Shown in pieces: positions 24,701-50,840 of a DNA stretch of 64,000 nucleotides. Position 1 is the stretch's first letter; every line of letters begins with the position of its first letter. The notes below the pieces were generated by a model, which did not search any database, had not been told where the DNA came from, and saw only the letters and a program-made list of their open reading frames with translations. Position numbers and translations under genes: made by a program. The DNA comes from a phage, in sequence record PZ386971.1. One strand, 5' to 3'.

Positions 24701-24743
24701 AAAGAAAGGGGAACGGGCTAATATTAACCCATTCCCCTTTATT
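24701..24743. terminator. intrinsic terminator hairpin
   Basis: ggggaacggg...cccattcccc stem flanked by A-rich and T-rich runs. Confidence 0.4.
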
Positions 24744-24970
24744 GAAGAACGCAATCCGCAGTCAGATTACTTTTTCTTCAGCTCTTCCAGCTTGGCTTCA
24801 ATTTGGTCCAGAATCTCTTTACCTTTCTGGACGATGGCTTCACCATCTTGCGCGTGTTTACGGAAGACCAAAGCACCAGCGATGAAGCCGACAACCGCGC
24901 CAGGAAGCGCATAAACCAGCAGATCTTGTAACATGATAATATCCTCGCTTTATAGGCGAGGATATTTATA

Positions 24971-26206
24971 TCAGCGTTTCAAGAGTGCCATGAGGTTGAC
25001 GCTGCTGGACTTCGGCTTGTCCTCAACCTTGCGCACAGGCATCTTCAGGTTCGTACATACCTCGGATGGCTCCCAGCGCGTACCCTTTTGCAGGTGCCAG
25101 ATATGCAGAGGAACACCAGTCTCAAAGAACACAGGCATCTTCCACTTCTGGACGCCTGGAACGTGCCCTGCAGGAGCCTTTTCGCACAACAGGGTATCTG
25201 GCAGCCAGAGCGAACGGGCTTCCCAGAGCGCTGCGCAGGAGTATTCAGGCCAGACGCGTTCCATGTAGTCTATTTCATCCCAGGTACGCTCTGCGTCCCA
25301 CCCGATGTAACGGGTATTCTTCAGTCGGAAGAATTTCTTCAGCCAACAAGCACCGGAGGTTTCAAAGTTCAGACGGTTGATGAACGTCAGGTGTCCGAAC
25401 TCAGCCACACAATCCTGGAACGCCTGCTCAAGGTCGGCCTCAAGGATGTCACACTCTTCATCCGTGATAGGGCAACCGTTGATCTTTTTCTTCCCGTGTT
25501 TAGTCACCCAATCGTCACGGTTGGACAAGAACGCCGCGCCATTACGGTTGGACTCGCTTCCATCACGATCACGCAGCATGAAGCCAGGGACGTCAATGGT
25601 GTATTCGTTCCCGAAGACCATGTTCAGGGCTTCCAGGAAGTTCCAGGCGCTCAGGCGACCGAAGTATTTCCAGGACATCGCCGTGTCCCACAGCTGGGTG
25701 AATTGTTCTGTCTTATCGATGCACACCAACATCCCACGGAAAGCGTCATATTGAGTACGGCCAGCCAGCCAGTCAATATAGGACTGAACACACGGAATCA
25801 TCTTGGACTTGCGGTAGCGGCAATCGGTATCGAATCGCATGCGATCAAAGTTCAGATTATACCAATCAGAGAAGCGCTGCATCTCTTCCTTAGACTGAGG
25901 CGGCACAGGGAACTCACTGTAGATCGTCCACGGCCCGACGGCGTTATAGCAACAACCCCACAGGAATGCCATCCAGATCTTGCGCTCGACTTTCTGTTCG
26001 AGGCTGATGCCTTCAGTGACTTCGATCGCATAGTCCATCAGACGCATCTGCTGGTTGTGCTCTTCTGTGTAGGACAGCGCCTCCACCCAAGCCTTGAGCA
26101 GGTACATGCGATTCTCAGGCTTGCGATAATCAACAGCCAGGTCAATCGGGTACTTCCATTCAGCCGGAGGTGTATAGCCCGTCGGCATTTTAGATAAATG
26201 ATGCAT
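24971..26206 (-). CDS. putative alpha-glutamyl/putrescinyl-thymine pyrophosphorylase-like protein (function tentative)
   Basis: 411-aa Trp/Tyr-rich ORF with protein-like composition; the antisense ORF is Arg/Leu-rich; function inferred from neighbourhood. Confidence 0.4.
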   Translation of the reverse strand: MHHLSKMPTGYTPPAEWKYPIDLAVDYRKPENRMYLLKAWVEALSYTEEHNQQMRLMDYAIEVTEGISLEQKVERKIWMAFLWGCCYNAVGPWTIYSEFPVPPQSKEEMQRFSDWYNLNFDRMRFDTDCRYRKSKMIPCVQSYIDWLAGRTQYDAFRGMLVCIDKTEQFTQLWDTAMSWKYFGRLSAWNFLEALNMVFGNEYTIDVPGFMLRDRDGSESNRNGAAFLSNRDDWVTKHGKKKINGCPITDEECDILEADLEQAFQDCVAEFGHLTFINRLNFETSGACWLKKFFRLKNTRYIGWDAERTWDEIDYMERVWPEYSCAALWEARSLWLPDTLLCEKAPAGHVPGVQKWKMPVFFETGVPLHIWHLQKGTRWEPSEVCTNLKMPVRKVEDKPKSSSVNLMALLKR

Positions 26207-26567
26207 CTTTCGCTTCCTCTTCAGGAGCCACAGCTTCAGGCTCGGGAGCCAACTGAATGTCTTCTGGTTTCACAAACCCCATCGGACGTTCCCACATATC
26301 GATGAAGCGGCGGTCGGCGGTCACAAACCAAAGACGGGCTGCAGTGTGGGTCTTACCCGAGATGAACATCTGGGCATTCGTCTGGGTACGGAACGGAGCC
26401 GCCTGCAACCACTTACCGAAGTCTTTGGACGACGGATTGGCATTCAGCTGGAACTGAGGGATGACGCAGTTCTTTTCAGGAATAAGGCGCACGGCAGTAA
26501 TGTGCTTGGCGTTTCCGGTGTAGTCAATCGCAACAGCCACAGCATCGCGAGGGATTTGAATTTTCAT
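26190..26567 (-). CDS. hypothetical protein
   Basis: 125-aa ORF. Confidence 0.45.
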   Translation of the reverse strand: MKIQIPRDAVAVAIDYTGNAKHITAVRLIPEKNCVIPQFQLNANPSSKDFGKWLQAAPFRTQTNAQMFISGKTHTAARLWFVTADRRFIDMWERPMGFVKPEDIQLAPEPEAVAPEEEAKDASFI

Positions 26568-26767
26568 TTTGGTTCCTTGAATATTTTATAGCCAGCAGCG
26601 CCGATAGCCATAATCGCGCCGATACAATACAACATGGTCAGGTTCATCTTCTCTGAGGTTGTTAAGTCCAGAGGGGTGAAATGATAGGCTAGGGCAGTAC
26701 ACATTGAAACGGCTGCCATAACCAGACCAATGAACAACAGATAATTAGACAACCGTTTCATGATCAC
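26564..26767 (-). CDS. small membrane protein
   Basis: 67 aa, two hydrophobic helices. Confidence 0.4.
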   Translation of the reverse strand: MIMKRLSNYLLFIGLVMAAVSMCTALAYHFTPLDLTTSEKMNLTMLYCIGAIMAIGAAGYKIFKEPK

Positions 26768-27681
26768 CCCTTCTTCATCAGGTCAAGGAGAGAGCGCGAC
26801 GCTGCCTTCGTTGCTTCTGGCTGGGCGCTCGCCTTGGTTTTAGTTTTGGATGCCTTCTGCGGCTTCTCAGGGACTCTGTGCGCCAAAGGATCCTGGCCGC
26901 CGATTTCACGAGTCATCGGATTGGTTTCACAGTAGGCGTAGAAGTCTTTGGTGTCCATGTTAACTTCACGCAGTTCGGACCGTATCTGATGACAAATCGC
27001 ATTACCCACAACCCACAGCGGGGCGTCGTATGGGAGCACCGCCAACTCGGACTGCTGTTTGGTCGTGAACTCCTGGGTGTTGGTCTCTGGCGCTTTATAC
27101 AGGATATCCTGTCCGCTGTAATCATCAACAGCCACAGTGAAGCCCAGCGCCAGCATTTCGGCCTTCGACTTCTCAAACTCCTTGGAGTAAGATTCGTTGC
27201 GTGACCAGCCGGAGTTCCCTGCTTCTTTACCAGATCGACCACGGATACGAGCATCGTACTGATAGCGGTCGGGGTACGCAAAGTACAGCAGCGCCAATGA
27301 TTCAATCGGATAGTTCTTGAACATCCATTCAGGACGCCATTTGTCCGACAGCATGAGGGGTTCACCCTCACACACCAGAGTGTATCCCTGAACCAACCAG
27401 CACTTGATTAGATCACGAGCAATATCGCCTGAGCCTGTAGCAGCATGGATTGCATCCATTGAAGTCCAGGAAGCCAGGCCGGATTTGTTAGACACGGTGT
27501 ACTGTCCAACGAAGATTAACTTCAGCTCTCCGAACTTCAGGCCAAACGGGCGAGTCTTGTCACCAACGGTGTAGGTCAGTTCGGTAGGCTCCAGCTTCGT
27601 ACGGAGCCATTCGATGAACTGGACCACTCTCGTACCCTTGCCCGTGGCCGAGGTGCCTTTCACTACGATAATTTTTGCCAT
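26764..27681 (-). CDS. P-loop kinase (candidate 5-hydroxymethyl-dU DNA kinase)
   Basis: Walker A GTSATGKGT at N-terminus; 305 aa. Confidence 0.55.
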   Translation of the reverse strand: MAKIIVVKGTSATGKGTRVVQFIEWLRTKLEPTELTYTVGDKTRPFGLKFGELKLIFVGQYTVSNKSGLASWTSMDAIHAATGSGDIARDLIKCWLVQGYTLVCEGEPLMLSDKWRPEWMFKNYPIESLALLYFAYPDRYQYDARIRGRSGKEAGNSGWSRNESYSKEFEKSKAEMLALGFTVAVDDYSGQDILYKAPETNTQEFTTKQQSELAVLPYDAPLWVVGNAICHQIRSELREVNMDTKDFYAYCETNPMTREIGGQDPLAHRVPEKPQKASKTKTKASAQPEATKAASRSLLDLMKKG

Positions 27682-27986
27682 TACACAGCATCCTCAATAC
27701 GCCAGCTCACGCCGCCCAGCCAAGGTGCCCAGAACACAGCAACCTGCGGACGACCGTTTTCTTCAAACTTAACTTTATACTGGTCGTCGAAGTTATAGAA
27801 GATTTCATCCGATTCAGAGCGCTGGCCGATCTTCACCAGTACATCATGAAGAGCCTTGGCTGCGCCGATAGGAGTTGGAGTCTCCTGCTGACGAATGAAG
27901 TTGTTCACATGGTTAATCACGCCATCCATGTCGCTGTCACCGGAACGCTTGTCTGGGGTTTCCCCGAACTTATTCTGATCTTGCAC
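27681..27986 (-). CDS. hypothetical protein
   Basis: 101-aa ORF. Confidence 0.45.
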   Translation of the reverse strand: MQDQNKFGETPDKRSGDSDMDGVINHVNNFIRQQETPTPIGAAKALHDVLVKIGQRSESDEIFYNFDDQYKVKFEENGRPQVAVFWAPWLGGVSWRIEDAV

Positions 27987-27995
27987 GATGTCCTC

Positions 27996-28775
27996 CTATC
28001 GGACGTATTGATAATGACTAATCAGGCGGTTCACCACTTCGAAGATATTGTGGTTCAGGAAGTCGAAGTGATTCTGGCCTTCTACTGGTTTAATATAAAG
28101 CATGTCTTCCGAATTCGAAAGATCCAGTTTTTCATAATTGCCCTGAGGAACAAAGATGACAAAGATGTTGTTCAGGCCGCACGGCTCGACATACTTCGGA
28201 TTGTCATCAATCAGGACATCGCCAGCCAGCAGATGCTTTTCGTCGGTACTGACAAACCCGTTGAAGATACCAGGGAACTTATCATAGACAAACTGACGCT
28301 TGCTGCGCTCGTGTTCCGGCTCACACTTGGACACTGCGATGAATTCAACATTGTCGAAATCTTCAAGCAAGATCTCCTTCAGATTTACCAGGAACTCGTA
28401 AGCGCCGGGGAGCGGGTTCATCTTGGCGTACAAGTCAGGGCGACGCCACCAGTCCATAGGATCGTTACCGCTTGGCACACGTTGTTTGTGCATCCCCAAT
28501 TGGACTTCATGGTATAGCCACGCCGGATGCGCACGTTCACGCATCAGAATAGCCAGGTCGCCAGCATGGGACATATAACACTCTTTGGTGATCGGCTGGA
28601 ACTGGTATGACTTATGTTCCCCCGTAGCGATAGCAGCGGCGGCGATGTTCTCTTCGTTAAACCACTGCACCCAAGGGGAGAGGCTGTCGACCAACGTCAG
28701 GTCAACATCCACGAGGACGCGATACAGGCCACCGACCTTTGATTTCATATCATAGATACAAACCAGGTTGTTCAT
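27996..28775 (-). CDS. HAD-superfamily hydrolase (nucleotidase-like)
   Basis: HAD motif I DVDLT and C-terminal GDVLIDDN. Confidence 0.5.
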   Translation of the reverse strand: MNNLVCIYDMKSKVGGLYRVLVDVDLTLVDSLSPWVQWFNEENIAAAAIATGEHKSYQFQPITKECYMSHAGDLAILMRERAHPAWLYHEVQLGMHKQRVPSGNDPMDWWRRPDLYAKMNPLPGAYEFLVNLKEILLEDFDNVEFIAVSKCEPEHERSKRQFVYDKFPGIFNGFVSTDEKHLLAGDVLIDDNPKYVEPCGLNNIFVIFVPQGNYEKLDLSNSEDMLYIKPVEGQNHFDFLNHNIFEVVNRLISHYQYVR

Positions 28776-29122
28776 TTGTCTTCCTCAACTTTATCGTAGC
28801 CTGTAGCAACACACTGTTCTTCGGTACAATCTGCATACAGAACGACGGAGGCCTGCTTCACGTAGGTGATGCAGTGGTAAGTTTCGTCTTCCTGGATGGA
28901 ATCGTCATAGTTGCAGACAGTTTGGAGCGGACCCGGAGTAGTGTTGTCCAGTGCTGCATGCGCCTTGATGGTGTCTTCCATCTTGGACACGGCCTGCTCA
29001 TTGGTGAACGTCGGCGTGTCAAGGTCTACAGTAGAAGCAACGTCCAGAAGGGTGGAACACGCAGTGGTAGAGAAAGCCAGAGCACACACCAGAAGAATCT
29101 TATTGAGTTTCATTTCAATCAC
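28772..29122 (-). CDS. putative lipoprotein (signal peptide with Cys lipobox-like site)
   Basis: N-terminal KILLVCALAFSTTAC followed by polar acidic domain with four further Cys. Confidence 0.45.
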   Translation of the reverse strand: MIEMKLNKILLVCALAFSTTACSTLLDVASTVDLDTPTFTNEQAVSKMEDTIKAHAALDNTTPGPLQTVCNYDDSIQEDETYHCITYVKQASVVLYADCTEEQCVATGYDKVEEDK

Positions 29123-29175
29123 CTGTTTGTCAAAGGGTTAACAGGGGGAATTATATCCCCCTTTGGTTTATTGAA

Positions 29176-32175
29176 TCAACCTTTCTTCTTTTGCATCATG
29201 GCAAGAAGGTTCACACGGCGCTTGTGCGACCAGCCGACCACGTCAAGGATGGACTGAATCGGGTCAATGAAGGACTTCTCAAAGGCCGCCTGATAATCCA
29301 CCCATTTGCCCAGACCAAGCTCCTCAGGGAAGAACTCAGGATATGCGAAGTAATTCTGGCCGAATGGGTTGCCTGGCTTCAACAACACCATCTGTACCTT
29401 ATCACCCGACTCGATCATCGGTAGACCCAGATCTTCGTTCTTCTCAACCAGACGGTTGTAGCCCACACACGCCTTGGCAGCAAAATGAGCACCAGAGATG
29501 AACGATCCGTCAGCAGCCACACACTTCTCTATGTCGGACACGCCGGAAGCCTTGGCGATATCGTCTACAGAGAGTTTCATGTACTCCTCTTTGTACTGGG
29601 AGATGAGCGCCTGTACTTCCTCTTCAGTGCCGAGTAGGATCTTCTCATAGCACTTGACAAGACGCTCACGACACCATTCCGGCGTGGTGGACTTGCGGGC
29701 TTCCAGACCTTTGAACTTGATCTTCGGCTTCTCGTACTTGATACCCTCACTGTCGTACACGGCCATGGCATACATCTTCTTGGCTCGCCAGACAGCGGCT
29801 GACGCAATGACCTCACGCTCCCATACCATGCGCTGTTCAAATCCGTTCATGGTGTTACACAGAAGCTGTGCCCACTCATTGGTCTTCGGCTGGTAGTTGT
29901 CTTTGATCCATTGGTCGATATTATCAACCATAGCATGATGGTCAGTAACATCAGGCCACAACTGCTTGACAAGACGCTCAATGCAGATGTAGTTGGAGTC
30001 GGTATCACCTGCGATGACGAAGTCCTGGCCTGTTGTACCACACAGCTTGTTCAGATAGTCATCAGTGTAACGCTTGTTCCACTTGTTGATCAGCTGACCG
30101 GATGTGGTGATGGCTTCGGCAATGTTGAGGTTGAAGTACTCTTTGAACCAGACGTTCGAGATAGCGCCATAACCTGCGTTCATCAAGATCTTCAGACCTT
30201 GCTGTAGGGTGTCTTGAGCAACGCCCAGATCTTCCCACTTCTTCATCACTTCGGTCAGTGCATCAAGATCAATGTTCTTGTGCTCTTCATACCACTCTGG
30301 GTCATAGTAGCGAGACTTCATGGCAGACTCAAGATGGAAGTCGCCCTTCGACATCTCTTTACACCAGCCAGCCCACTGCTCATACTTCAGACCCTTGGCC
30401 TTCTCTACTTTACGGTCGCTGTAGATACCACGCATGATTTCAGACAGGAACGACATCTTCTCGTTGCTGAAGAATTGAACGTTCGGCGTGAACGACACGT
30501 TGTAGCGGCGCAGGGTTTCAAAGTGGAACTCACCCAGGGCAACCAACTCATCAACAACCTGCAGGCGTTCGTCAACCGCACGCAACAGCTTGTCGTGAAG
30601 GGCTTTCATCAACCGACGTTTGTGCATCGGCGTTGCCATGTTATTCATCTGAGCAGCCAGCTCTTCACACATAGCCTCAATAATCTCGCGGCGCTGGTGT
30701 TTGTCGCCAACGATAGTCTCTGGACCGAGGTTGTACTGCTGAATGATGTGAGGATACAGGGAATTCAAATCTTCCGAGAAGACCCAGAAGTAGATTCCTG
30801 GTGTCACATCCATGACGTATGCACCCTCAAAGTCGGTCGGACCATCGTATACACGCTGGATCTTAGGCACTATCCCCTTCTCGTACAGGCGATAGTAGCA
30901 CATGGCCAGCCACGGAGCCACAGTGCCCAGACCGTCTTCATAGTTGGACTTGGTGCGGTAGGCCAGGACGAACATCAGCTGGAGCAGGCGCAGCTTCTGT
31001 TCAAGTCGCCATACCAGCTTAACGTCTTTGATACCATATCGGGTGTGTTTGCAGTAGTCGTTGAAGTACAGATCAAAGAGCGACTTGCTCTCACTGTAGT
31101 CCATCTTCTTCTCACCCAGCTCACAATACGCAATCCAGTCAAGAGAGTAGCGTTCACGGGTGGTGTACGTGTGTTTCTTGTAGATCTGCATATAATCGAG
31201 CATAGGACAGCCCACGAACTGATACGTCGTGATATCGCCCTTCTTATCGCGAATGATACGCTTCTTAATGATACCCCAAGGACTGAGGCGCGACGTTTCA
31301 GCCTCACCCAGAACCTGATTCATGCGCTCAACAAGATACGGGCTATCGAACGTTTCAATGTTCCAGCCTGTCCAGCCGTCGAACTGACGCTCCGACCAGA
31401 AGTCAAGGAAAGATCGCAGCAGATCTTGTTCGGTGGTGAACTCCTGATAAACAACCTCAAGGCCGCCGATCTCTTTGTCTTCGGTGTCGTATGCGAATTT
31501 GTTACGATCTTTGGCACAGGGCACACCCCAGACCATGAACTTATTGGTCGCCATATCCTGAAGCTGGATCAGGGTAATGGGGAACGCCGCATTCATGTCT
31601 TGGGTGATCTTGCCGTTGCTGTCAATGATAGGGAACTGATCAGTGACGTTGTTGCTGATGAAAGAACCAGGGAAGTGCTCACGGACAAAGTCATGGTTGG
31701 CCAGCACTTGTTTATGGAAGCGGCGAATGCGCGCCTCATTCCCTTTGAACGTCTGCTGCTCAATAGTTGGGTGAGGGAATGGACCTTTGGTCATCTTTCC
31801 GTCTTTCCACCCGGCGGAGAATACTTCGATATCGAGGTTAGCAATATGGATGTTGGAGTAATCCGGCTCAATCTTTCCAGGAAAGCTATGGGCGATGAAC
31901 TGGTATGCATAATCGGTCTGCCCATAAATGGCAGCACCCTGGACTTCCTTGTACTCTTCAAGATAGTTGTCAGCGTCACGCATGGAAGGGAACTGCTTGG
32001 CTACCAGGGGTTCATTGAGAAGGCCGACCTTTTCAACATTTGAATAGTCAGCCGTGGGTAAATAGAGAGTGGGTTCGAATTTCTTTTTCAACAGACGGCG
32101 ATTACCCATGTCATCTGCAATTCGAATCAACAGGTCATTGCCCCTGCGGGCAACGTTCGTATAGAAAACGGTCAT
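29176..32175 (-). CDS. DNA polymerase, family B (T4 gp43-like)
   Basis: 999-aa ORF with exonuclease NLDIEV motif and polymerase motif C (IAGDTDS). Confidence 0.9.
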   Translation of the reverse strand: MTVFYTNVARRGNDLLIRIADDMGNRRLLKKKFEPTLYLPTADYSNVEKVGLLNEPLVAKQFPSMRDADNYLEEYKEVQGAAIYGQTDYAYQFIAHSFPGKIEPDYSNIHIANLDIEVFSAGWKDGKMTKGPFPHPTIEQQTFKGNEARIRRFHKQVLANHDFVREHFPGSFISNNVTDQFPIIDSNGKITQDMNAAFPITLIQLQDMATNKFMVWGVPCAKDRNKFAYDTEDKEIGGLEVVYQEFTTEQDLLRSFLDFWSERQFDGWTGWNIETFDSPYLVERMNQVLGEAETSRLSPWGIIKKRIIRDKKGDITTYQFVGCPMLDYMQIYKKHTYTTRERYSLDWIAYCELGEKKMDYSESKSLFDLYFNDYCKHTRYGIKDVKLVWRLEQKLRLLQLMFVLAYRTKSNYEDGLGTVAPWLAMCYYRLYEKGIVPKIQRVYDGPTDFEGAYVMDVTPGIYFWVFSEDLNSLYPHIIQQYNLGPETIVGDKHQRREIIEAMCEELAAQMNNMATPMHKRRLMKALHDKLLRAVDERLQVVDELVALGEFHFETLRRYNVSFTPNVQFFSNEKMSFLSEIMRGIYSDRKVEKAKGLKYEQWAGWCKEMSKGDFHLESAMKSRYYDPEWYEEHKNIDLDALTEVMKKWEDLGVAQDTLQQGLKILMNAGYGAISNVWFKEYFNLNIAEAITTSGQLINKWNKRYTDDYLNKLCGTTGQDFVIAGDTDSNYICIERLVKQLWPDVTDHHAMVDNIDQWIKDNYQPKTNEWAQLLCNTMNGFEQRMVWEREVIASAAVWRAKKMYAMAVYDSEGIKYEKPKIKFKGLEARKSTTPEWCRERLVKCYEKILLGTEEEVQALISQYKEEYMKLSVDDIAKASGVSDIEKCVAADGSFISGAHFAAKACVGYNRLVEKNEDLGLPMIESGDKVQMVLLKPGNPFGQNYFAYPEFFPEELGLGKWVDYQAAFEKSFIDPIQSILDVVGWSHKRRVNLLAMMQKKKG

Positions 32176-32254
32176 GTAATTCTCCAGGTTATCCGTGCCG
32201 TTAGCACGTGGGCATATTTAACCATAGAGCCATTCATTGACCAAGGAGTTTATT

Positions 32255-32827
32255 ATGGCAATCCCCCTCGTTGGTATGATCCCAGGGGCGCTCAAGCAAC
32301 TCTGGAACCTCGGGACTGATTTGATCCAATATAAGCGGGAAGTTGTACAGGCCAAACACGACGTCAAGCTGGAGGCCATCAAGTCCTCCTCAGATTGGGA
32401 GCTGTCTAAGATTACCGAAGTCGGCGGGTCTTGGAAAGACGAATTCTGGACTATCGTGTTGGCCATACCCGCCATCCTCGTCATGACTGCTCCGGTTGTG
32501 GAACTGATTCTGTTCCCTGGTGAGTATCATAAAGGGGATTTCATCAAAGCAGTAATCGGTGGCCTTCAGGCACTAGATACCGCACCTGAATGGTATACCT
32601 ATTCGTTATTGACAGCAATTAGTGCATCATTCGGTATCAAAGGCTACAATCACTACAAAAGCAACAGGCGAAAAGCCCAAGCTATGGATGCTCTCAAGCA
32701 ATTTGGGGTTCGGGTCGTACAGAAAGATCCCACTGTTGTTACTCAGTCGGGTGCTCCCGATCTTGAGTCTGCTCCCCCAGCTGGGTCTACTGCGACCTCT
32801 GGTGCGTGGCCTGATCTGAAGAAATAA
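32255..32827 (+). CDS. membrane protein
   Basis: Start set at ATG 32255 behind AAGGAG; two or three hydrophobic helices. Confidence 0.5.
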   Translation: MAIPLVGMIPGALKQLWNLGTDLIQYKREVVQAKHDVKLEAIKSSSDWELSKITEVGGSWKDEFWTIVLAIPAILVMTAPVVELILFPGEYHKGDFIKAVIGGLQALDTAPEWYTYSLLTAISASFGIKGYNHYKSNRRKAQAMDALKQFGVRVVQKDPTVVTQSGAPDLESAPPAGSTATSGAWPDLKK

Positions 32828-32869
32828 GTTCAAGGGGAGGAAACTCCCCTTTCTTTTGGTGTTTAGGGA

Positions 32870-33082
32870 ATGAATGTGGTAAACAAGAGATTGCTCGTCA
32901 CCCAAGGCGGGGCGACGATAGTGCGCGGAAGGATCTATGAACAAATACAGCTGGGTGATCACAAGACGCGCCTGACTGTTAAGGCTCCAGATGGTGGTTG
33001 GCCGACAAAGGTAATTGTCCCTGACGGTCTCATAGAACGAGGGTCGGCGGTGTATAAAGGAGCAGAGTTCAAAATTTATTAA
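32870..33082 (+). CDS. small hypothetical protein
   Basis: 70-aa ORF. Confidence 0.35.
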   Translation: MNVVNKRLLVTQGGATIVRGRIYEQIQLGDHKTRLTVKAPDGGWPTKVIVPDGLIERGSAVYKGAEFKIY

Positions 33083-33177
33083 AATATTTATTGAATAAAG
33101 TTTACTTCTTCAATAACTGGCGTATACTTCTAATTGTAGTACGAACAAACAACAATCTGAAGAGAAGGAAATACATC

Positions 33178-33735
33178 ATGGCAATCGAAATTATCGCTCA
33201 ATCCAAATCTGGTAAAACTGTAATGTACGGCACTGAAGAAGGCCGCGCAATCACCACTCTGGGCACAATTGACGGTTCCAACCCAGTGAAAGGCGGTCGC
33301 TACCTGGTTGAATACGGTTCACACCTACTGATGGTAAGCAAAGTCGATGGTCGTGAAATCATGATTCCCCGCAAAGAGTACTTCGACTCGCGCATTGAAG
33401 CCATGAACTTCTTCCTTTTCCAGGAACGTCACGAACTGTTCGTTGAAGCGAAAGACGCAGGCCTGGACGATGCGACTGCCGAACTGATCGCTGAAGGTAA
33501 AATGACTCTTGAGGCTGCTCTGGGTGACATGGATTGCGATGCTGAAGCCCATTACATCGAATATTCCGCTTATCAGAATGAATGCGAAGACGATCCTGAA
33601 GATGACGGCTTCGACCCTGACCTTCACGGTGGCGAGGATGACAACACTCCTTCCCTGGAAGTGATCATGGCAGGCGGTCAGGCCGCTTGGGAGTGGCAGA
33701 ACGAAAAGAACGCCTGGCTGGATTCCCACCTTTAA
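33178..33735 (+). CDS. hypothetical acidic protein
   Basis: Start at ATG 33178 behind GAAGGA; followed by terminator. Confidence 0.5.
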   Translation: MAIEIIAQSKSGKTVMYGTEEGRAITTLGTIDGSNPVKGGRYLVEYGSHLLMVSKVDGREIMIPRKEYFDSRIEAMNFFLFQERHELFVEAKDAGLDDATAELIAEGKMTLEAALGDMDCDAEAHYIEYSAYQNECEDDPEDDGFDPDLHGGEDDNTPSLEVIMAGGQAAWEWQNEKNAWLDSHL

Positions 33736-33748
33736 TGTGAAGAAATAA

Positions 33749-33778
33749 AGAAAGGGGCTTAACGCCCCTTTTCTTATT
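33749..33778. terminator. bidirectional intrinsic terminator between convergent genes
   Basis: ggggc-ttaac-gcccc hairpin with AAA upstream and TTTTCTTATT downstream. Confidence 0.55.
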
Positions 33779-34232
33779 CTTCCCAGAAGTCTTCGTCGTC
33801 CCCGACAGCAGCCAGTTCCGTGTCCAGTTCTTCATCGGTAAACGGTGGCAGCACCCCGTTCTGAATCAGATAATCCATCTCATCATCTTCCAGCTGCAGG
33901 TCGGTGGCAATATACAGCGCTCCGCTGCCCTCTTCGTCCGTCTCGATACTGTACGAAGTGTATGGCACCCCATTCACTGTAATGATGATAGACGTTGGAT
34001 CCTTGGGATCTACGTGCGCCTCGAACGGCACACCATCAATCGGTGCATCTTCTAGGAAGGTAGCAAGTGCTACGGCGGCGCGGACAACATCAGTGCCTTC
34101 AACGCCCGCATAGATCTCTTCCGCGCCTGTCTCTTCACGATCAAACAGCTCAATCGTGATACCGTCTTGAACACCAGTCCATACAGGGATGTCATTGGTG
34201 TATTCTGATTCAAACAATTTGGAGGTTGGCAT
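33774..34232 (-). CDS. hypothetical highly acidic protein
   Basis: 152-aa ORF rich in D/E. Confidence 0.45.
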   Translation of the reverse strand: MPTSKLFESEYTNDIPVWTGVQDGITIELFDREETGAEEIYAGVEGTDVVRAAVALATFLEDAPIDGVPFEAHVDPKDPTSIIITVNGVPYTSYSIETDEEGSGALYIATDLQLEDDEMDYLIQNGVLPPFTDEELDTELAAVGDDEDFWEE

Positions 34233-34376
34233 GTTGGGTTCCTCAGTGGGTTAGCCATATGGGGTATTTAGGCTTCCCGCTTGGCGAGGTCTGGTTTGTA
34301 CAGGACGCCTCTCGGAAATATTGGAGGAAGGTTTTCATAGATACCCCACACGGATTGTATGGGGTATTCAGGAGGG

Positions 34377-35591
34377 TCAGGAAGGGGTGAATTCGTTTAC
34401 AGGAACTGTTTCAGGGATAGCCAGCTCAGGGCATGCTGCCTTCATCGGCTCGATGTATGGCTTGCTACCCACAATCCAGAACAGAGTGTTCTCATTGAGC
34501 AACTCGGGCTTGTGTTGCTGAACCCAGGTCATGACCTTGCCTTCATAGCGAGGATGCAACTCAATATCACCCCACTGATATTCCATCAGGTCATTATAAC
34601 GAACCCAATTAGTGGTATGAAGATCCCAATGGTGTACCTCAAAGCGAGGAAGCACGACCTCTGGCTCTTCCTTCTGCCTGATACCACTTAGGAGGCCAGC
34701 CAGCGAAACGCTCTTAGAGGCATGCTGAAGCTCCTTCTTGCCGTGTACATAGTCTGGGTTGTCGTGATAGCGACGGGTAAAGTCGACAATGTGCGGTAGA
34801 TTGGCATGTTTGCCGATGATGCGCAGACGACTCTCGATAAAGTCCAGGCGGTTCGGACCGATGCCAATCAGATACACACGCTTCAGATTAGGCTTCGGAT
34901 GCATTGCCAGCCCGGTCAGGATGCTTGTGCAAGAGTTGCACGATCCGGCTGGGATGATCAGGTCAGTAATGTGATCAGGAATGTTGGCAACCTGCTCGCC
35001 ACCCAACATATGGAACCCAGCAATGCGCTCAGGGGAGTGGGCTGTATGGTCGAGGGTGATACCATACTCCAGATAATACGCCTTTGGATTCTGTTGTTCG
35101 ATCAACTTCTTACAGCGCGGCTGGATGGTGCTGTTGTAACCCGAGCCGACGAAGTTGAACTCACTACCAAACCAGGCTGACATTGCCACCATTTCATGGT
35201 TCATACAGGTGGTGGGTTTGGTCGCGCCGAGCACAGTAGTTGTCTTGCCGCCGAAGTGCCGAGAGACTGCCGTCGCCATAGGGGACTGCGGACTACCAAC
35301 GACAGTACCATGGATGATGTCAGGGGAGCCTCCGGTCATGAGGTGCTCAACCATCAACCAGATGGCCTGGCGGAGTTTGCTGCCGTTGATGCCCTGCTGG
35401 CCATTTGCATAATTGGACAGCGGCGCAAAATAATCTTCACGCTTGAACCAGACCTGCTGGTTGGTTTCGGGGTTGACGACAAGTTCGCACGGGGTGTGCT
35501 TGTAGAGATAATCTTCCCAATGGACCAGGTTGCGGTCGAGGGAAAGGATATCGAAGATGGTCTTGTTCATTCTATTTTCTCCTGTAGACAT
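34377..35591 (-). CDS. putative PLP-dependent enzyme (fold-type II-like)
   Basis: QGINGSKLRQA resembles the Lys-containing PLP-binding motif of Trp-synthase-beta-like enzymes; Gly-rich loop HGTVVGSPQSP. Confidence 0.45.
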   Translation of the reverse strand: MSTGENRMNKTIFDILSLDRNLVHWEDYLYKHTPCELVVNPETNQQVWFKREDYFAPLSNYANGQQGINGSKLRQAIWLMVEHLMTGGSPDIIHGTVVGSPQSPMATAVSRHFGGKTTTVLGATKPTTCMNHEMVAMSAWFGSEFNFVGSGYNSTIQPRCKKLIEQQNPKAYYLEYGITLDHTAHSPERIAGFHMLGGEQVANIPDHITDLIIPAGSCNSCTSILTGLAMHPKPNLKRVYLIGIGPNRLDFIESRLRIIGKHANLPHIVDFTRRYHDNPDYVHGKKELQHASKSVSLAGLLSGIRQKEEPEVVLPRFEVHHWDLHTTNWVRYNDLMEYQWGDIELHPRYEGKVMTWVQQHKPELLNENTLFWIVGSKPYIEPMKAACPELAIPETVPVNEFTPS

Positions 35592-36655: not shown

Positions 36656-36744
36656 TGGCGGAAGGTGAAGGATTCGAACCTTCGGGGGCTAAAAGCCCCA
36701 CTCGATTAGCAGTCGAGTCCCTTAAACCTCTCGGGCAACCTTCC
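36656..36744 (-). tRNA. tRNA-Ser (anticodon GCU), class II with long variable arm
   Basis: Hand-folded cloverleaf: acceptor GGAAGGT/ACCTTCC, anticodon loop CTGCTAA, T-arm GAAGG-TTCGAAT-CCTTC, encoded CCA. Confidence 0.75.
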
Positions 36745-36964
36745 AATTTGGACGGGCTTCACACCCGATTGAGCATTTGATCTGCTGTAGCCCAACTCCC
36801 CGCGCTTCTCAGCGCCGATTGGTTAACTGGCGACCAGTGCCTTCTGGTTCGATCTCCTGGAACTTTACAGGCTTTGCGCCCGACCATTTCTGGAAGTTGG
36901 GGCATCGTTTCCGATGTGGAGTCACCCCATTTTATACACAGCTGGCTGCAACGCTTACTGTGTT

Positions 36965-37048
36965 TGGTGTGAGTGGATGGATTCGAACCACCGCGCTGTT
37001 ACGGGGAGATTTACAGTCTCCTGCATTCGACCGCTCTGCCACACTCAC
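36965..37048 (-). tRNA. tRNA-Tyr (anticodon GUA), class II
   Basis: Acceptor GTGAGTG/CACTCAC, anticodon loop CTGTAAA, T-loop GGTTCGAATCC, long variable arm, CCA encoded. Confidence 0.7.
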
Positions 37049-37305
37049 ATTTGGTCTGCCGCTGCGTGCTGGGCCACGCTCGAGGACATCGGCCATCCTT
37101 CCTCAGCTAATCCACGCAGCGGTAGATTTGTATCAGAGTGTCCGGTGTAGCAACCCGTGAGGTGCGCACTACTGTAGCCTCTACACTCTGAATTTGGTGG
37201 GCGTTACTATCGTCGTCTTCGGATTCCGTTCGGCTATTGGACAGAGGCTTGGAGCTTGTCGGTCGCGTACTTTATGCCTATTCACTTTCGTTCACACCCA
37301 TTGTC

Positions 37306-37381
37306 TGGCGACGATGGCAGGACTTGAACCTGCGACATACGGTTTAACAGACCGCCGTTCTACCGACTGAACTACATCGTC
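37306..37381 (-). tRNA. tRNA-Asn (anticodon GUU)
   Basis: 76 nt; acceptor GACGATG/CATCGTC, anticodon loop CTGTTAA, T-arm GCAGG-TTCAAGT-CCTGC, CCA encoded. Confidence 0.75.
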
Positions 37382-37552
37382 TTGCAAATCACTATACCAT
37401 ATAAAGTTTATTGAACAAACATTTATTTTACAACAAACTGTATTGGCGGGGTCTGAGGCTTTTCACCTCACCTGCTGGGTTTGGCCGCCCAGCCGTTCTC
37501 TATGAGGATTCACTGTCCGGACAGCTATCCATTAAACTATCGCCCCTCAATA

Positions 37553-37629
37553 TGGTGATCCTGATTGGGTTTGAACCAATGACCAATGAATTATGAGTTC
37601 ACTGCTCTAACCGACTGAGCTACAGGACC
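37553..37629 (-). tRNA. tRNA with CAU anticodon (elongator Met or Ile-lysidine type)
   Basis: 77 nt; acceptor GGTCCTG/CAGGATC with G1-C72 pair, anticodon loop CTCATAA, T-arm ATTGG-TTCAAAC-CCAAT, CCA encoded. Confidence 0.7.
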
Positions 37630-43209: not shown

Positions 43210-44400
43210 ATGGCCGATTTTCTGAGTCGATACACAGGTCAGCAGATTGATGCAATCCTTTCTTCTGTTGACGATAAAATAAGCAAGACTGATGTTGTCA
43301 ACGATTTCGCTGTTGATGATCCGTTGTTCCCTCCTTCAGCTCATTTGACATACGAGCTGAAGCGTTCTGTGGATAAAATCTACGACACACTGGAAAACAA
43401 AGTGATCCGCACCGACGGTGGTGAACAAACGATCAACGGGAACAAGACCTTTGCTGCGTTATTGACAGCCAACGGCGGCCTGACTGTTCCGGCTGGGAAG
43501 AAACTGTCTATCGCGGATGAGCCTATAGTAGCGACAGATGGTGTTAACCTGAGCATGTTGAGAAAGCATGGTGTCAGTGAAGACACTACCCCGCCTGGTT
43601 CTGGTTTGGCTGGGGAGTTGTTGACATCCGGATATTACAAATTCAATTTGGATTTCACCAGATTGTCTGCGTATACCGGATCAACGTTGCCGACTTCAAT
43701 TCCAGTACAAACAGATTCTGGAGCGCGTTATTGGACAATGACTGCATTTTTTGATGCGTTGTTCGCAGACAACCGATTTAATGGATATGTGACAACGACA
43801 GCGTATGACGCAGATATGCTGAGTCTAGAGTCCCAGATTAATAACATCAACACATCGTTGAACGGGAAAGTCAACACATCGACTTACAACACTAAGATGG
43901 CGTCGTTGGATTTGAGTATCTCCAATATCAATACGTCTCTGGGTAATAAAGTCGAGGTCAGCACGTACAACACGAAGATGACATCTCTGGATAACAGCAT
44001 CAGTTCTCTTTCCAGTGATAAAGTTAATGTATCAACGTATAATGCCAAGATGACCTCTGTCGACAATAGTTTAGGGAACGCCGTTTATCGTACCAAAACG
44101 AATTTGTCTTCTTACACGGTTTCGGCTTCTGGGACGACGGCTCTTCCAGATTTTGATTTGGTGAACCTTTGTCAAATACTGGTGACCGCGCAATGGGGAA
44201 CAGGTAACGTTGTTGATACATATCGAGTAACCATAACTCGCGACGGAACTATCAAATCGGAGTTGTTGGTTCAGAAAAGTACGAGCGGTACAGTGACGTT
44301 CACAGGGGCTGTGGTGGGTGGTAAATTGAGAATTTCCGTTGTTAATGCGAATACAACAACTGCTTGTTCGGTCGATTATTCTATTGTAGCTTCTTTCTAA
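43210..44400 (+). CDS. tail fiber protein with internal tandem repeats
   Basis: N-terminal fiber-like segment (VIRTDGGEQTINGNKTF); three tandem ~21-aa repeats (NINTSLxxKVxxSTYNTKMxSLD). Confidence 0.6.
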   Translation: MADFLSRYTGQQIDAILSSVDDKISKTDVVNDFAVDDPLFPPSAHLTYELKRSVDKIYDTLENKVIRTDGGEQTINGNKTFAALLTANGGLTVPAGKKLSIADEPIVATDGVNLSMLRKHGVSEDTTPPGSGLAGELLTSGYYKFNLDFTRLSAYTGSTLPTSIPVQTDSGARYWTMTAFFDALFADNRFNGYVTTTAYDADMLSLESQINNINTSLNGKVNTSTYNTKMASLDLSISNINTSLGNKVEVSTYNTKMTSLDNSISSLSSDKVNVSTYNAKMTSVDNSLGNAVYRTKTNLSSYTVSASGTTALPDFDLVNLCQILVTAQWGTGNVVDTYRVTITRDGTIKSELLVQKSTSGTVTFTGAVVGGKLRISVVNANTTTACSVDYSIVASF

Positions 44401-44408
44401 AGTGAAAA

Positions 44409-44417
44409 CTAAATACC
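44409..44417 (+). promoter_or_regulatory. candidate late promoter (CTAAATAcc) with downstream leader hairpin
   Basis: Motif followed by perfect inverted repeat tacccta...taggggta just upstream of ATG 44453. Confidence 0.4.
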
Positions 44418-44452
44418 CCTAGATGAAACGAACACATTTAGGGGTATTTGAA

Positions 44453-47400
44453 ATGGCTAATAAACCAACACAGCCTGTTTTCCCTCTCGGTCTGGTGGCT
44501 GAAGAGCAGTCTACTTTGGCTGGTGTCGTCAACAAGGGTACGATTGAGCATGGACCAGATGCTGTCCTGACTTTACCCGAGGGTAATGCCAGCGCAGGAC
44601 TCCCGTCTTCCGTTCGCTACAATGCCGACTCCGACGAATTTGAGGGCTTCTATGAAAATGGTGGATGGTTGCCGCTGGGTGGCGGTGGTATCCGCTGGGA
44701 AGTCCTTCCGCATGCCTCTACGGTAATGCTCACTGAAGGGCGAGGCTATCTCATTAATAATACCACAGGGGCATCTACAGTGGTTCTCCCTTCCCCTACG
44801 CGTATTGGGGATTCCGTTACTATTTGTGATGCTTATGGGAAATTTGCCACTTACCCATTGACCGTGTCTCCTTCTGGAAATAATTTGTATGGCTCCACTG
44901 AAGACATGGCTATAACAACTGATAACGTATCAGCAACGTTCACTTGGTCTGGGCCTGAACAAGGTTGGATTATTACATCCGGCGTCGGTCTTGGCCAAGG
45001 CCGTGTCTACAGTCGTGAAATCTTTACAAAAATTTTGGCGTCTGAAACAAGTACTGTCACTCTCAATACTCCACCAACAATCGTGGACGTGTATGCTGAC
45101 GGAAAACGCCTTGCGGAATCCAAATATTCACTAGATGGGAATGTAATCACTTTCAGTCCTTCTTTGCCAGCCAGCACAGAACTTCAGGTGATTGAATATA
45201 CTCCTATTCAATTGGGTAATGGCGGTGGTTCTAGTTCTTCTACGATTACTTGGGTCTATAATGGGGGTTCAGCGATTGGCGGTGAAACCGAAATCACGTT
45301 GGACGTCGTTGTTGATGATGTTCCGGCCATTGATATAAACGGAAGTCGTCAGTATAAAAATCTGGGATTCACATTCGATCCATTAACCAGTAAAATCACT
45401 CTGGCGCAAGAACTGGAACCAGAAGATGAAGTTGTTGTAATTATCAATGGAACACCAAACATCTATAATCAAATTGATCATACTTTGCGGGAAGTGGCTC
45501 GTGTAACCAATGTTAAAGATACAGAGGTCGTTTATTTTAGTGTTGGTGCTGTGCTAAGCGGGTATAAAGTTATCTATGATAAAGTAACACAGAGATCATA
45601 TTTTATTCCAGAGCTACCGACTGGAACCACGGCAGTCAGCCTTAGTTCTTCGGCTGTACTTGTGCATTCTGCTGGTAGTGTTGATCTGGGCGCATTAGCC
45701 GTATCTCGTGAGGAGTATGTGACCTTACCTGGTTCATTCGATACAGGTGTAACTGTTAATACCAAGAATGAGTTGGTTGTGAGTAACGATATTAAATATC
45801 GTTGGGATGGTTCTGTACCCAAAGTAGTCCCTCCAGAATCTACCCCATTGGGTACAGGAGGTGTTGGTCCAGGGGCATGGCTTGTAGTTGGTGTTGTTGG
45901 ATTAGAGCAACGTTTAGCCTCCTGGAAAGGTTCTTCTCTTATTGATTCCGGTAGTCTGTCTCTTTACAAAAAGAGCGGTGTATTCGGTGATGGTGGGAAT
46001 GTATCCGATAAATATCAGGTTGTTCTACATTCAGATGGGTTCTGGTACAAGTACAATGGGACACTACCTGTTAGTTATGGTGCTGCCCCAGACTCTTCTT
46101 GGACTAACGTTGGTAAGCTAACAGGGTTTAATGAACACTCACCTGAGAATTTTGGTGCAATCCCCAATGACCCTAGTTTTGACTGTTTACCTGCTATAAA
46201 ACTAGCTATAGCCACAGGTACATTAAATCTGAATGGGAATTCTACCTACCACGTAACGGATGAGGTTGTTATACCTTCTTACTTACGTGGGAATCTAAAC
46301 GGGGCAACAATTAAAGCAATTGGCTCCGTATGGCCTACGTTAAAAGCTGTTGTACGCGTTAGTAAATTTCCTGTCGGTACAGCAACAGTGGATGTGGCTA
46401 ATACAGAGAATCAAGTGCGAGGATTACGCTTAATCGGTAGCTTAAACGTAGACTGTGCAGATATTGCATCATATGGTTTTTATGCACGTCTTCTGTGTGC
46501 AGAATCTGAGATGGGTAGCATCTATGCATATAATGCTAATAGATATGGCATTGTAATGTTTGCTTGCTGGTATTTTCAAATGGGCACTCTCCATGCAAAC
46601 AACTGTGCAAGGGGTATGGCATTAGGTTATTCAACAGAAGGTGAGCAAGGGGATACCTATGTGAATGCTACACACTTCCCTCACATTAGTGCATGGGGTA
46701 CTGATAAGTCTACGGGACTAGGTTATGACCCAATCACGGATGATGCGAGTAAATATACAATAGGTGCTGGTATTATCTTAGGTCGTGGTTTGTCTACCAG
46801 TGTTGGTGTGATTTGCTCTGAGAATACGGCAGGTGCTGGGGTAGTAACAATGGACCCTGCTGCGTGGGACATTGGGGTCATGTACTGTGAGGGTAATAGT
46901 AAAGACTTTACTCAAGAGGGTGAACCCAAGGTGTCATTGCTGTCATCCAAGGCCAACAGTGAAAGTCATACGCTTACCATCTCCACACTCCACCTTTCCG
47001 CAGGTTGTGGCATTTTAACCAGAAGCAATCAAGAGCGTGTGCTAATCAGAAGTCTATATCGCTTTGATAACGCAAAAACCTTCCACTCTTACTGCACAGC
47101 AGACACAGTAGAGGTTGGTAGCAGCAACTACTATGTACTTAACGGGCATAATTACAATGCACCTGCTGCACTTATTAAGGAACCGCTCAATGTAGACTTT
47201 GTGCGTTCAGGGTTGACTTTAAGTGAGTGGACATCTACAGTTATCGGTCATTTTGCTGGTAGTACAGCAGAACAACAGCTTTATGTTAAGCTCCCAGCAA
47301 GTCCCAGCGGCCTAGATTTACAGATAGATAGTGAGGATGGGACGGAATATATCACTGTAACTGGTACAGATTTTAAAGTCTCTCTAACTAAGAAAAGATT

Positions 47401-47506
47401 GCCTAGTAAACTGTATGAGATAAGGATTGGTGGGGTGTCTACAGTAGCTGTTACCGATTGTTCTATTCTAGTCAGAAGTAAAAAAGGTGATTGGTATTAC
47501 TGGTAG
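44453..47506 (+). CDS. tailspike protein A (N-terminal anchor region, shared ~130-aa module, beta-helix-like C-terminal part)
   Basis: Start set at MANKPTQ downstream of promoter and leader hairpin; shared module at about aa 375-510. Confidence 0.65.
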   Translation: MANKPTQPVFPLGLVAEEQSTLAGVVNKGTIEHGPDAVLTLPEGNASAGLPSSVRYNADSDEFEGFYENGGWLPLGGGGIRWEVLPHASTVMLTEGRGYLINNTTGASTVVLPSPTRIGDSVTICDAYGKFATYPLTVSPSGNNLYGSTEDMAITTDNVSATFTWSGPEQGWIITSGVGLGQGRVYSREIFTKILASETSTVTLNTPPTIVDVYADGKRLAESKYSLDGNVITFSPSLPASTELQVIEYTPIQLGNGGGSSSSTITWVYNGGSAIGGETEITLDVVVDDVPAIDINGSRQYKNLGFTFDPLTSKITLAQELEPEDEVVVIINGTPNIYNQIDHTLREVARVTNVKDTEVVYFSVGAVLSGYKVIYDKVTQRSYFIPELPTGTTAVSLSSSAVLVHSAGSVDLGALAVSREEYVTLPGSFDTGVTVNTKNELVVSNDIKYRWDGSVPKVVPPESTPLGTGGVGPGAWLVVGVVGLEQRLASWKGSSLIDSGSLSLYKKSGVFGDGGNVSDKYQVVLHSDGFWYKYNGTLPVSYGAAPDSSWTNVGKLTGFNEHSPENFGAIPNDPSFDCLPAIKLAIATGTLNLNGNSTYHVTDEVVIPSYLRGNLNGATIKAIGSVWPTLKAVVRVSKFPVGTATVDVANTENQVRGLRLIGSLNVDCADIASYGFYARLLCAESEMGSIYAYNANRYGIVMFACWYFQMGTLHANNCARGMALGYSTEGEQGDTYVNATHFPHISAWGTDKSTGLGYDPITDDASKYTIGAGIILGRGLSTSVGVICSENTAGAGVVTMDPAAWDIGVMYCEGNSKDFTQEGEPKVSLLSSKANSESHTLTISTLHLSAGCGILTRSNQERVLIRSLYRFDNAKTFHSYCTADTVEVGSSNYYVLNGHNYNAPAALIKEPLNVDFVRSGLTLSEWTSTVIGHFAGSTAEQQLYVKLPASPSGLDLQIDSEDGTEYITVTGTDFKVSLTKKRLPSKLYEIRIGGVSTVAVTDCSILVRSKKGDWYYW

Positions 47507-47513
47507 TATAATA

Positions 47514-47542
47514 AAAAGCCCCCAATTTTGGGGGCTTTTATT
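47514..47542 (+). terminator. intrinsic terminator after tailspike A
   Basis: gccccc-aatttt-gggggc hairpin then TTTTATT. Confidence 0.6.
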
Positions 47543-47570
47543 ATATAGAGTTTACTGTTTTCATTACCCT
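47536..47570. repeat. conserved ~35-bp element downstream of tailspike terminators (copy 1)
   Basis: ttttatatagagtttactgttttcattaccct; near-identical copy at 55206-55240. Confidence 0.5.
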
Positions 47571-47762
47571 GATTGATAATGCTGTTGGCTCTCTCGGGTT
47601 GTCATCAAACGGGTATAAGAACTTTATAGGTGATATCAATGATGGGTCAGCGTATTTTTATTTCGCCAACATAGATGGATCAAGAATATCGGGGTCGTCT
47701 GTTTATGATGGGTGGGGTGATGTTGGTATACATTTTGAAATGTGTCTGGAATAGGAGTGTCA

Positions 47763-47857: not shown

Positions 47858-47860
47858 ATC

Positions 47861-50832: not shown

Positions 50833-50840
50833 TCTTCAAA

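Follow-up and report, generated by a model that had tools for sequence, protein, structure and literature searches.

Does the group of genes around the family-B DNA polymerase in phage sequence record PZ386971.1 encode a pathway that hypermodifies thymidine in DNA and, if so, which base would be made? The original prediction assigned a Walker-A kinase, a Trp-rich protein, a HAD hydrolase and a PLP-type enzyme to such a pathway. We analysed a stretch of 64,000 nucleotides (the window), whose source is an Agtrevirus-like member of the Ackermannviridae. Nucleotide identity of the window is 97% to Escherichia phage LHE287 and 92% to Shigella phage Ag3. Families, catalytic residues, identities and gene order come from this analysis, and the chemistry comes from the literature.

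The open reading frames between positions 24971 and 35591, including the polymerase, have the coordinates originally listed, and all are on the minus strand. The polymerase gene (29176–32175; 999 aa; PF03104 and PF00136, phrog_262) is uninterrupted and heads a gene chain. It is followed by genes for a DUF7292 protein (28772–29122; 116 aa; PF23964 at 180.9 bits), the HAD protein (27996–28775; 259 aa), a DUF7254 protein (27681–27986; 101 aa; PF23912 at 174.7 bits) and the kinase (26764–27681; 305 aa), then by two small conserved ORFs of 125 and 67 aa (26190–26767; phrog_4163 and phrog_4514) and the gene of the Trp-rich protein (24971–26206; 411 aa). From the polymerase to this last gene, intergenic gaps range from -17 to +53 nt, and the start and stop codons of the 125-aa and 67-aa ORFs overlap those of their neighbours. 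Neither of these ORFs had a Pfam match in the profile search. A conserved 55-aa ORF (24767–24934) comes next, and a terminator-like hairpin on the same strand (24705–24740; 16-bp stem, then a T run) closes the chain. The DUF7292 and DUF7254 proteins and the 125-, 67- and 55-aa ORFs are of unknown function.

At the nucleotide level, the region is 92–97% identical to relatives from Agtrevirus and Limestonevirus (Shigella phage Ag3, Escherichia phages AV101, LHE287 and RPN242, and Salmonella phage SW16-7). The same gene set is listed in the SW16-7 paper (PMC10458263), and in Escherichia phage RPN242 the labels 'aGPT pyrophosphorylase clade 2' and 'P-loop nucleotide kinase 2' are already in use. 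RPN242 and other relatives have insertions of two kinds, one that interrupts the polymerase gene and one, a SegD-like homing endonuclease, beside the kinase gene; the present phage has neither.

The kinase begins with MAKIIVVKGTSATGKGT, and its P-loop (Walker A motif), GTSATGKGT, occupies residues 9–17. In Pfam it matches PF18747 HMUD2 ("5-hmdU DNA kinase 2") at 526 bits (E = 3e-158; cut-off 25 bits), with residues 1–304 covering profile positions 1–298 of 298. By BLASTP it is 85% identical to gp243 of Salmonella phage ViI, for which 5-hmdU DNA kinase activity has been demonstrated in vitro (PMC8989533). At one P-loop position, the Gly of ViI (GTSGTGKGT) is replaced by Ala in this protein. Vibrio phage D493 has a homologue in the same position with 40% identity to the kinase; no DUF7254 counterpart was detectable at the corresponding position of that phage. 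A phmmer search of the kinase against the PDB gave no matches. This protein is the orthologue of gp243 and is predicted to phosphorylate 5-hmdU within DNA in an ATP-dependent manner.

The Trp-rich protein contains 20 Trp residues (4.9%, compared to 1.9–2.4% in its neighbours). The profile search that had been proposed places it in PF18724 ADDT ("amino acid:DNA transferase"), a family previously named aGPT-Pplase2, with a score of 203 bits (cut-off 26.2 bits; E = 7e-60) over profile positions 2–228 of 232. This protein and the kinase both belong to hypermodification families rather than to unrelated ones, and both matches are far beyond chance. BLASTP showed gap-free alignment with the serine:DNA transferase gp247 of ViI at 90% identity, and the homologue in Vibrio phage 1.255.O is 56% identical. 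In a five-sequence alignment, the ViI, Vibrio, mycobacteriophage and PaMx11 homologues all share E282 and C287 with this protein, and the two residues align with E243 and C247 of PaMx11 gp46 (gp46 residues from PMC11472151). Mutation of the catalytic Cys or Glu abolishes activity in M6 gp51 and ViI gp247 (PMC8989533). A three-sequence MAFFT alignment had paired the catalytic Cys of PaMx11 gp46 with C341; this pairing was dropped, as C287 is the counterpart both by the Pfam envelopes and in the five-sequence alignment, to which intermediate sequences had been added. While phmmer found no PDB matches for the transferase, a profile built with PaMx11 gp46 matched PDB 8z2m, as it must because gp46 is part of the profile; it also matched 25qc, an independent entry named 'amino acid:DNA transferase'.

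Differences from gp247 amount to ~10% of residues and are clustered around positions 155–176. The segments around E282 and C287 are identical to those of ViI, as is the segment aligned to the W146/K150 region of PaMx11 gp46. Because identity to gp247 is 90% and the same base is made in the 1.255.O lineage, whose homologue is 56% identical, specificity for L-serine with an O-linkage is probable. The originally proposed pyrophosphorylase-type transfer does not hold, since the substrates of this step have been established as monophosphorylated 5-PmdU and free L-serine, which react via a covalent Cys intermediate.

The PLP-type enzyme (34377–35591, minus strand; 404 aa as annotated) had been proposed as the tailoring step, and the comparison with ViI supports this placement. 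The protein is 91% identical to ViI gp226 across 395 residues (BLASTP), and the aldimine (Schiff-base) lysine is kept: K72, in the motif INGSKLRQ, aligns with K92 of gp226, a residue reported for that enzyme together with PLP-dependent decarboxylase activity in vitro (PMC8989533). The true start is probably the second ATG, at 35570, giving 397 aa (and making the lysine K65), because AGGAG precedes this ATG and residue 8 is where the alignment to the PHROG profile begins. By annotated starts, the N-terminus is ~20–27 residues shorter than that of gp226. Similarity to more distant proteins was low. The score against Pfam PALP was 29.3 bits, below the cut-off of 35, and the best match in a PDB profile search was a weak one to ACC deaminase (E = 0.23), in which the K72 motif aligned with GGNKTRK. 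The other decarboxylase that has been characterised, M6 gp52, showed no significant similarity in BLASTP, and phmmer found no matches in the PDB. Single-sequence AlphaFold2 models of the PLP and HAD proteins were unusable (pLDDT 36 and 33, respectively). Judging from its sequence, the PLP protein is orthologous to gp226 and a predicted O-serinyl-thymidine decarboxylase of the gp226 type, which falls among the fold-type II PLP enzymes.

Taken together, these three genes very probably represent the post-replicative part of a ViI-type thymidine hypermodification pathway, and the virion DNA would contain 5-(2-aminoethoxy)methyl-dU (5-NeOmdU). The ViI pathway runs from 5-hmdU through 5-phosphomethyl-dU and O-serinyl-T to 5-NeOmdU (PMC5889632, PMC8989533). 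In the present phage, the polymerase would insert 5-hydroxymethyl-dU instead of T at replication, presumably by incorporating 5-hmdUTP; the supply would depend on a thymidylate-synthase-like dUMP hydroxymethylase whose gene lies beyond the window. The P-loop kinase would then use ATP to phosphorylate the 5-hydroxymethyl group of bases already in DNA, yielding 5-phosphomethyl-dU. Attack of transferase Cys287 on C6 of the base would expel the phosphate and form an exocyclic methylene. Free L-serine would capture this methylene through its side-chain hydroxyl, and the result would be O-serinyl-thymidine. Finally, the PLP enzyme (34377–35570) would decarboxylate the serine moiety to produce 5-NeOmdU, a base expected to protect the DNA from many restriction enzymes.

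Of the complete ViI-type system, the window carries only a part: homologues of the hydroxymethylase, of the first kinase (gp67) and of gp160 lie outside it. In tBLASTn searches of the window with ViI gp66 (thyA-like), gp67 and gp160 (HMUDK_hel), nothing scored better than E = 0.18. The dUMP hydroxymethylase that had been sought is thus absent from the window; LHE287 carries a thyA-like gene with 77% identity to ViI, along with homologues of gp67 (88%) and gp160 (87%). Because all three are present in this 97%-identical phage, we expect the homologues elsewhere in the genome. The window does contain, away from the polymerase region, a dCMP deaminase gene (3427–3936, minus strand; PF00383 at 59 bits, phrog_174), which is a probable supplier of dUMP for the pre-replicative branch.

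Since the literature searched yielded no nucleoside analysis of any Agtrevirus phage, 5-NeOmdU in this phage is something that we infer. The base has been measured directly in the Kuttervirus phages ViI, CBA120 and CBA6 and in Vibrio phage 1.255.O (PMC5889632), as well as in Taipeivirus phiHS2 (bioRxiv 10.64898/2026.05.19.726188), and this phylogenetic bracketing supports the same product here. Furthermore, Ag3 is among the predicted 5-NeOmdU phages in Table 1 of Lee et al. 2018 (PMC5889632). The same enzyme families could in principle make another final base, if a nucleophile other than serine were used or if the PLP enzyme did not decarboxylate. ADDT substrates do vary (glycine in M6 and PaMx11, putrescine in PhiW-14, serine in ViI; PMC8989533), and both the clustered differences from gp247 at 155–176 and the literature gap for Agtrevirus leave some room for such an outcome. 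We nevertheless consider it very unlikely, given the ViI-identical catalytic and W146/K150-aligned segments and a decarboxylase 91% identical to gp226. The 1.255.O transferase, moreover, sits in the same gene order, and its phage makes the 301-Da base even at just 56% identity (PMC5889632).

With 5-NeOmdU as the preferred product, a sizeable share of the T positions in the phage DNA should carry it, and resistance to many Type II restriction enzymes is therefore expected. ViI DNA resists 71% of the Type II enzymes tested (PMC6449724). The expected resistance bears on the use of Agtrevirus phages in therapy and on their cloning and sequencing.

The HAD hydrolase is present as predicted, with a match to the NT5C family; its inclusion in the pathway remains a matter of inference, as it is outside the five genes used for the ViI reconstitution (PMC5889632). 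Motif I, DVDLT, is at residues 23–27 and LIDDN is at residues 188–192. The Pfam score against PF06941 NT5C is 35.2 bits (cut-off 24.8), and the best PDB matches are 5'(3')-deoxyribonucleotidases. The core HAD motifs are common to this protein and the NT5C family (human mdN/cdN; PDB 3bwv, 1mh9), but the NT5C match is limited to the C-terminal core (residues 106–199) and a long insertion follows motif I. Identity to ViI orf00239 is 76%, and in Vibrio phage D493 a 30%-identical HAD homologue adjoins the polymerase.

The HAD protein is tied to the pathway genes by position only. Its gene shares the overlapping chain with the kinase and transferase genes and is co-transcribed with them, and its place beside the polymerase is conserved across Ackermannviridae, even in the Vibrio members. 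Such linkage would be expected if the hydrolase performed a step in modifying the replicated DNA, for instance with phosphorylated DNA as its substrate, but several observations make this highly improbable. Five ViI lysates without the HAD protein sufficed to make 5-NeOmdU (PMC5889632), each chemical step is accounted for by purified gp243/gp67, gp247 and gp226 (PMC8989533), and the substrates of the NT5C family are free deoxyribonucleoside monophosphates. The distribution of the two families also differs: ADDT-bearing mycobacteriophages and Caulobacter phage Cr30 are among the ADDT matches yet absent from the HAD matches, and the HAD matches exceed the ADDT matches by ~10 Vibrio and 8 Aeromonas phage records. 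A role on the dNTP pool fits better than a direct DNA-modification step; we suggest that the protein may act as a dTMP/dUMP nucleotidase, favouring 5-hmdUTP.

In ViI-type phages, some of the incorporated 5-hmdU becomes 5-NeOmdU (~40% of thymidines in ViI) and the remainder ends as canonical T. The study of the pathway (PMC8989533) names no enzyme for the conversion of 5-hmdU to T and leaves the TS-dinucleotide selectivity unexplained. It is conceivable, if unlikely, that the modified fraction is set, or the conversion to thymine carried out, by one or more unrecognised accessory factors among the HAD protein and the DUF7292, DUF7254, 125-, 67- and 55-aa ORFs. The NCBIfam and PADLOC libraries gave no useful matches.

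The system itself is already known: the enzymes, the order in which they act and their conservation across Ackermannviridae have been published, and our results add no new biology. Their main value is in correcting the annotation of many GenBank records. 'Guanylate kinase' is the label in RefSeq Ag3, MK-13 and ViI and the name of PHROG 4409, and 'threonine dehydratase' is the label in vB_CECAV_050 and for M6 gp52, but there is next to no chance that the genes serve ordinary metabolism (as guanylate kinase, threonine dehydratase and endonuclease) unrelated to DNA modification, as the kinase's sole Pfam match is HMUD2, full length and at 526 bits, with the guanylate-kinase family absent, and the ViI orthologues have been demonstrated to act on DNA (PMC8989533), leaving the metabolic labels as legacy annotation. 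We propose relabelling 'guanylate kinase' as 5-hmdU DNA kinase, 'threonine dehydratase' as O-SerT decarboxylase and the 'hypothetical protein' as serine:DNA transferase.

Among known systems, the Pseudomonas phages M6 (5-NedU) and PaMx11 (5-AcNmdU) follow the same logic, in which a 5-hmdU DNA kinase acts ahead of a transferase of the ADDT family that has the catalytic Glu and Cys. PaMx11 gp46 is a glycinyltransferase with a solved structure (PDB 8z2m). The M6 and PaMx11 transferases are only ~25% identical to the one described here and attach glycine via its amine, in contrast to the attachment of serine via its hydroxyl in the ViI type; the glycine-contacting W146 and K150 of gp46 are not conserved in the present protein. 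Downstream tailoring also differs, as M6 and PaMx11 use a radical SAM isomerase, an FAD lyase and an acetyltransferase. The much closer counterpart is the Kuttervirus ViI, which belongs to the subfamily Cvivirinae, whereas the present phage belongs to Aglimvirinae. ViI has one-to-one orthologues of the kinase, transferase and decarboxylase (gp243, gp247 and gp226, at 85%, 90% and 91%), and it keeps these genes, together with the HAD, DUF7254 and DUF7292 genes and the small ORFs, in the same order around the family-B polymerase. The ViI proteins and those of the present phage share the catalytic Cys, Glu and Lys.

The original prediction described a thymidine-hypermodification gene set flanking a family-B DNA polymerase. 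An ORF scan bore out every listed ORF, all on the minus strand: a Trp-rich protein (24971-26206, 411 aa), a kinase (26764-27681, 305 aa), a HAD protein (27996-28775, 259 aa), the polymerase itself (29176-32175, 999 aa), for which both exonuclease and polymerase domains of family B were matched, and a PLP protein (34377-35591, 404 aa). The kinase has the N-terminus MAKIIVVKGTSATGKGT and thus contains the predicted P-loop, and the Trp-rich protein has 20 Trp residues (4.9%), about twice the fraction of its neighbours. In Pfam searches, the kinase matched "5-hmdU DNA kinase 2" (PF18747, 526 bits) over its full length, and the Trp-rich protein matched "amino acid:DNA transferase" (PF18724, 203 bits), formerly clade 2 of aGPT-Pplase. 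As judged from these profiles, the assignment of these two of the four genes is unambiguous. The HAD protein exceeded the cut-off for NT5C, the 5'(3')-deoxyribonucleotidases (35.2 bits), and the PLP protein fell slightly under the cut-off for PALP (29.3 bits).

We compared the window genes directly with those annotated in Salmonella phage ViI. The transferase is 90% identical to gp247 without gaps, the kinase 85% identical to gp243, the PLP protein 91% identical to gp226 and the HAD protein 76% identical to orf00239. All four are one-to-one orthologues of their ViI counterparts, and the gene order around the polymerase is identical. It should be noted that legacy labels for pathway genes are misleading in ViI (NC_015296), Ag3 (NC_013693), M6 (NC_007809) and PaMx11 (NC_028770). 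Public records carry the kinase 2 orthologue as 'guanylate kinase'; in ViI, M6 and PaMx11 they name the gp67-type kinase 'terminase small subunit', and 'threonine dehydratase' is the label on M6 gp52 and on the PLP gene of vB_CECAV_050.

Lysates containing ViI gp67, gp160, gp226, gp243 and gp247 convert 5-hydroxymethyl-dU (5-hmdU) DNA to 5-(2-aminoethoxy)methyl-dU (5-NeOmdU; Lee et al. 2018, PMC5889632). Purified gp243 and gp67 phosphorylate 5-hmdU in DNA; gp247 then joins free L-serine, via its hydroxyl, to the phosphorylated base by way of an exocyclic methylene, giving O-serinyl-thymidine, which the PLP enzyme gp226 decarboxylates to 5-NeOmdU (Lee et al. 2021, PMC8989533). The "pyrophosphorylase" label is outdated for the Trp-rich protein, an amino acid:DNA transferase whose substrate is a monophosphorylated base.

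A conserved Cys and a nearby Glu are essential in gp247 (PMC8989533). In an alignment of five transferases (the window, ViI, Vibrio phage D493, mycobacteriophage Bane2 and PaMx11 gp46), window residues E282 and C287 are invariant and fall in the same columns as E243 and C247 of PaMx11 gp46, which has been crystallised (PMC11472151). A three-sequence alignment placed the motif wrongly; the five-sequence alignment and the Pfam envelopes agree on E282/C287. For the PLP enzyme, gp226 K92, the lysine proposed for the internal aldimine (PMC8989533), corresponds to K72 of the window protein in the motif INGSKLRQ, which was aligned with GGNKTRK of ACC deaminase in a weak profile match.

The most likely start of the PLP gene is its second ATG, at 35570, because an AGGAG precedes this codon, a ribosome-binding site that favours it, and the PHROG profile begins there. 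The enzyme is annotated as 424 aa in ViI (locus L002 28539-28700) and in Escherichia phage RPN242, compared to a maximum of 404 aa here; the longer form is excluded in this phage by a stop codon that lies in frame upstream of 35591. Directly downstream of the PLP-enzyme region are four minus-strand tRNA genes (36656-37629; Ser-GCT, Tyr-GTA, Asn-GTT and Met-CAT), whereas only Ser and Met are annotated at the equivalent place in RPN242.

Three of the four genes bear out the hypermodification reading. The HAD protein was not needed when 5-NeOmdU formation was reconstituted with ViI proteins (PMC5889632). From polymerase to transferase, genes overlap or are separated by gaps of at most 53 nt, and a 55-aa ORF closes the chain, together with a terminator-like hairpin with a 16-bp stem (24705-24740). 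The HAD gene therefore very probably shares a transcript with the kinase and transferase genes. Vibrio phages have a 30% identical HAD homologue in the same position. Outside the Ackermannviridae, the distribution of the HAD protein does not follow that of the transferase. Since its family acts on free dNMPs, our best guess is that it would be a dTMP/dUMP nucleotidase biasing the pool toward 5-hmdUTP. No function could be assigned to the products of the DUF7292, DUF7254, 125-aa, 67-aa and 55-aa ORFs. No enzyme was assigned to the conversion of remaining 5-hmdU to thymine in PMC8989533; the co-transcribed ORFs of unassigned function or the HAD protein might conceivably contribute to this step or to sequence selectivity, an unlikely reading favoured by nothing but their gene position.

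The 64-kb window has no homologue of ViI gp66 (the dUMP hydroxymethylase, which resembles thymidylate synthase and which the original prediction proposed to look for elsewhere in the genome), gp67 (the first kinase) or gp160 (Pfam HMUDK_hel). However, all three are present in Escherichia phage LHE287, at syntenic positions and 77%, 88% and 87% identical to ViI, respectively, so we expect them beyond the window rather than lost; synteny with LHE287 would put them some 13 kb or more past its left end. The left part of the window encodes, on the minus strand, a dCMP deaminase (3427-3936), phosphoesterase (phrog_547; 4957-5535), phosphatase (phrog_335; 7102-7716) and MazG-like pyrophosphatase (12341-12922). 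The deaminase and pyrophosphatase plausibly service the nucleotide pool, and all four may belong to the pre-replicative branch favouring 5-hmdUTP over dTTP.

Over the 10.6-kb region, nucleotide identity is 97% to LHE287, 96% to phage AV101, 91-92% to Shigella phages Ag3 and MK-13 and Salmonella phage SKML-39, and 80-90% to approximately 280 further Ackermannviridae records. The closest classified relatives belong to the subfamily Aglimvirinae (Ackermannviridae), indicating an Agtrevirus-like phage. In several close relatives (RPN242, A221, ZQ1, PC3 and PH4) the polymerase is annotated as split, with insertions labelled homing endonuclease or hypothetical protein, whereas here it is uninterrupted. 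Similarly, the SegD-like homing endonuclease between kinase 2 and DUF7254 in RPN242, also annotated in this region of AV101, is absent here (26764-27986).

Elsewhere, a plus-strand block of low GC (44423-55145; 41-45% versus approximately 50%) coincides with four long ORFs in the tail-spike cluster (1027, 809, 829 and 638 aa). By megablast, about 35% of 44000-56500 is the most that any one phage record matches. The remainder, presumably receptor-binding modules, appears from these matches to have been exchanged and to have nothing closely related to it in the phage collection.

Measurements of 5-NeOmdU exist for the Kuttervirus phages ViI, CBA120 and CBA6 and the distantly related Vibrio phage 1.255.O (PMC5889632), and for Taipeivirus phiHS2 (bioRxiv 2026). 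With only 56% identity to that of the window, the transferase of 1.255.O still retains the catalytic Glu and Cys, and the gene order is the same (polymerase, HAD, small ORF, kinase 2, transferase). As the window phage lies well within the lineages with measured 5-NeOmdU, this base is very likely its product too. The system is thus not new, and it has been predicted for the genus before: Lee et al. 2018 (PMC5889632) name Ag3 as one of the ViI-like phages in which they predict 5-NeOmdU, a 2024 review describes the pathway genes as conserved family-wide, the paper on Agtrevirus SW16-7 lists the same gene set, and the annotation of RPN242 already uses the family names.
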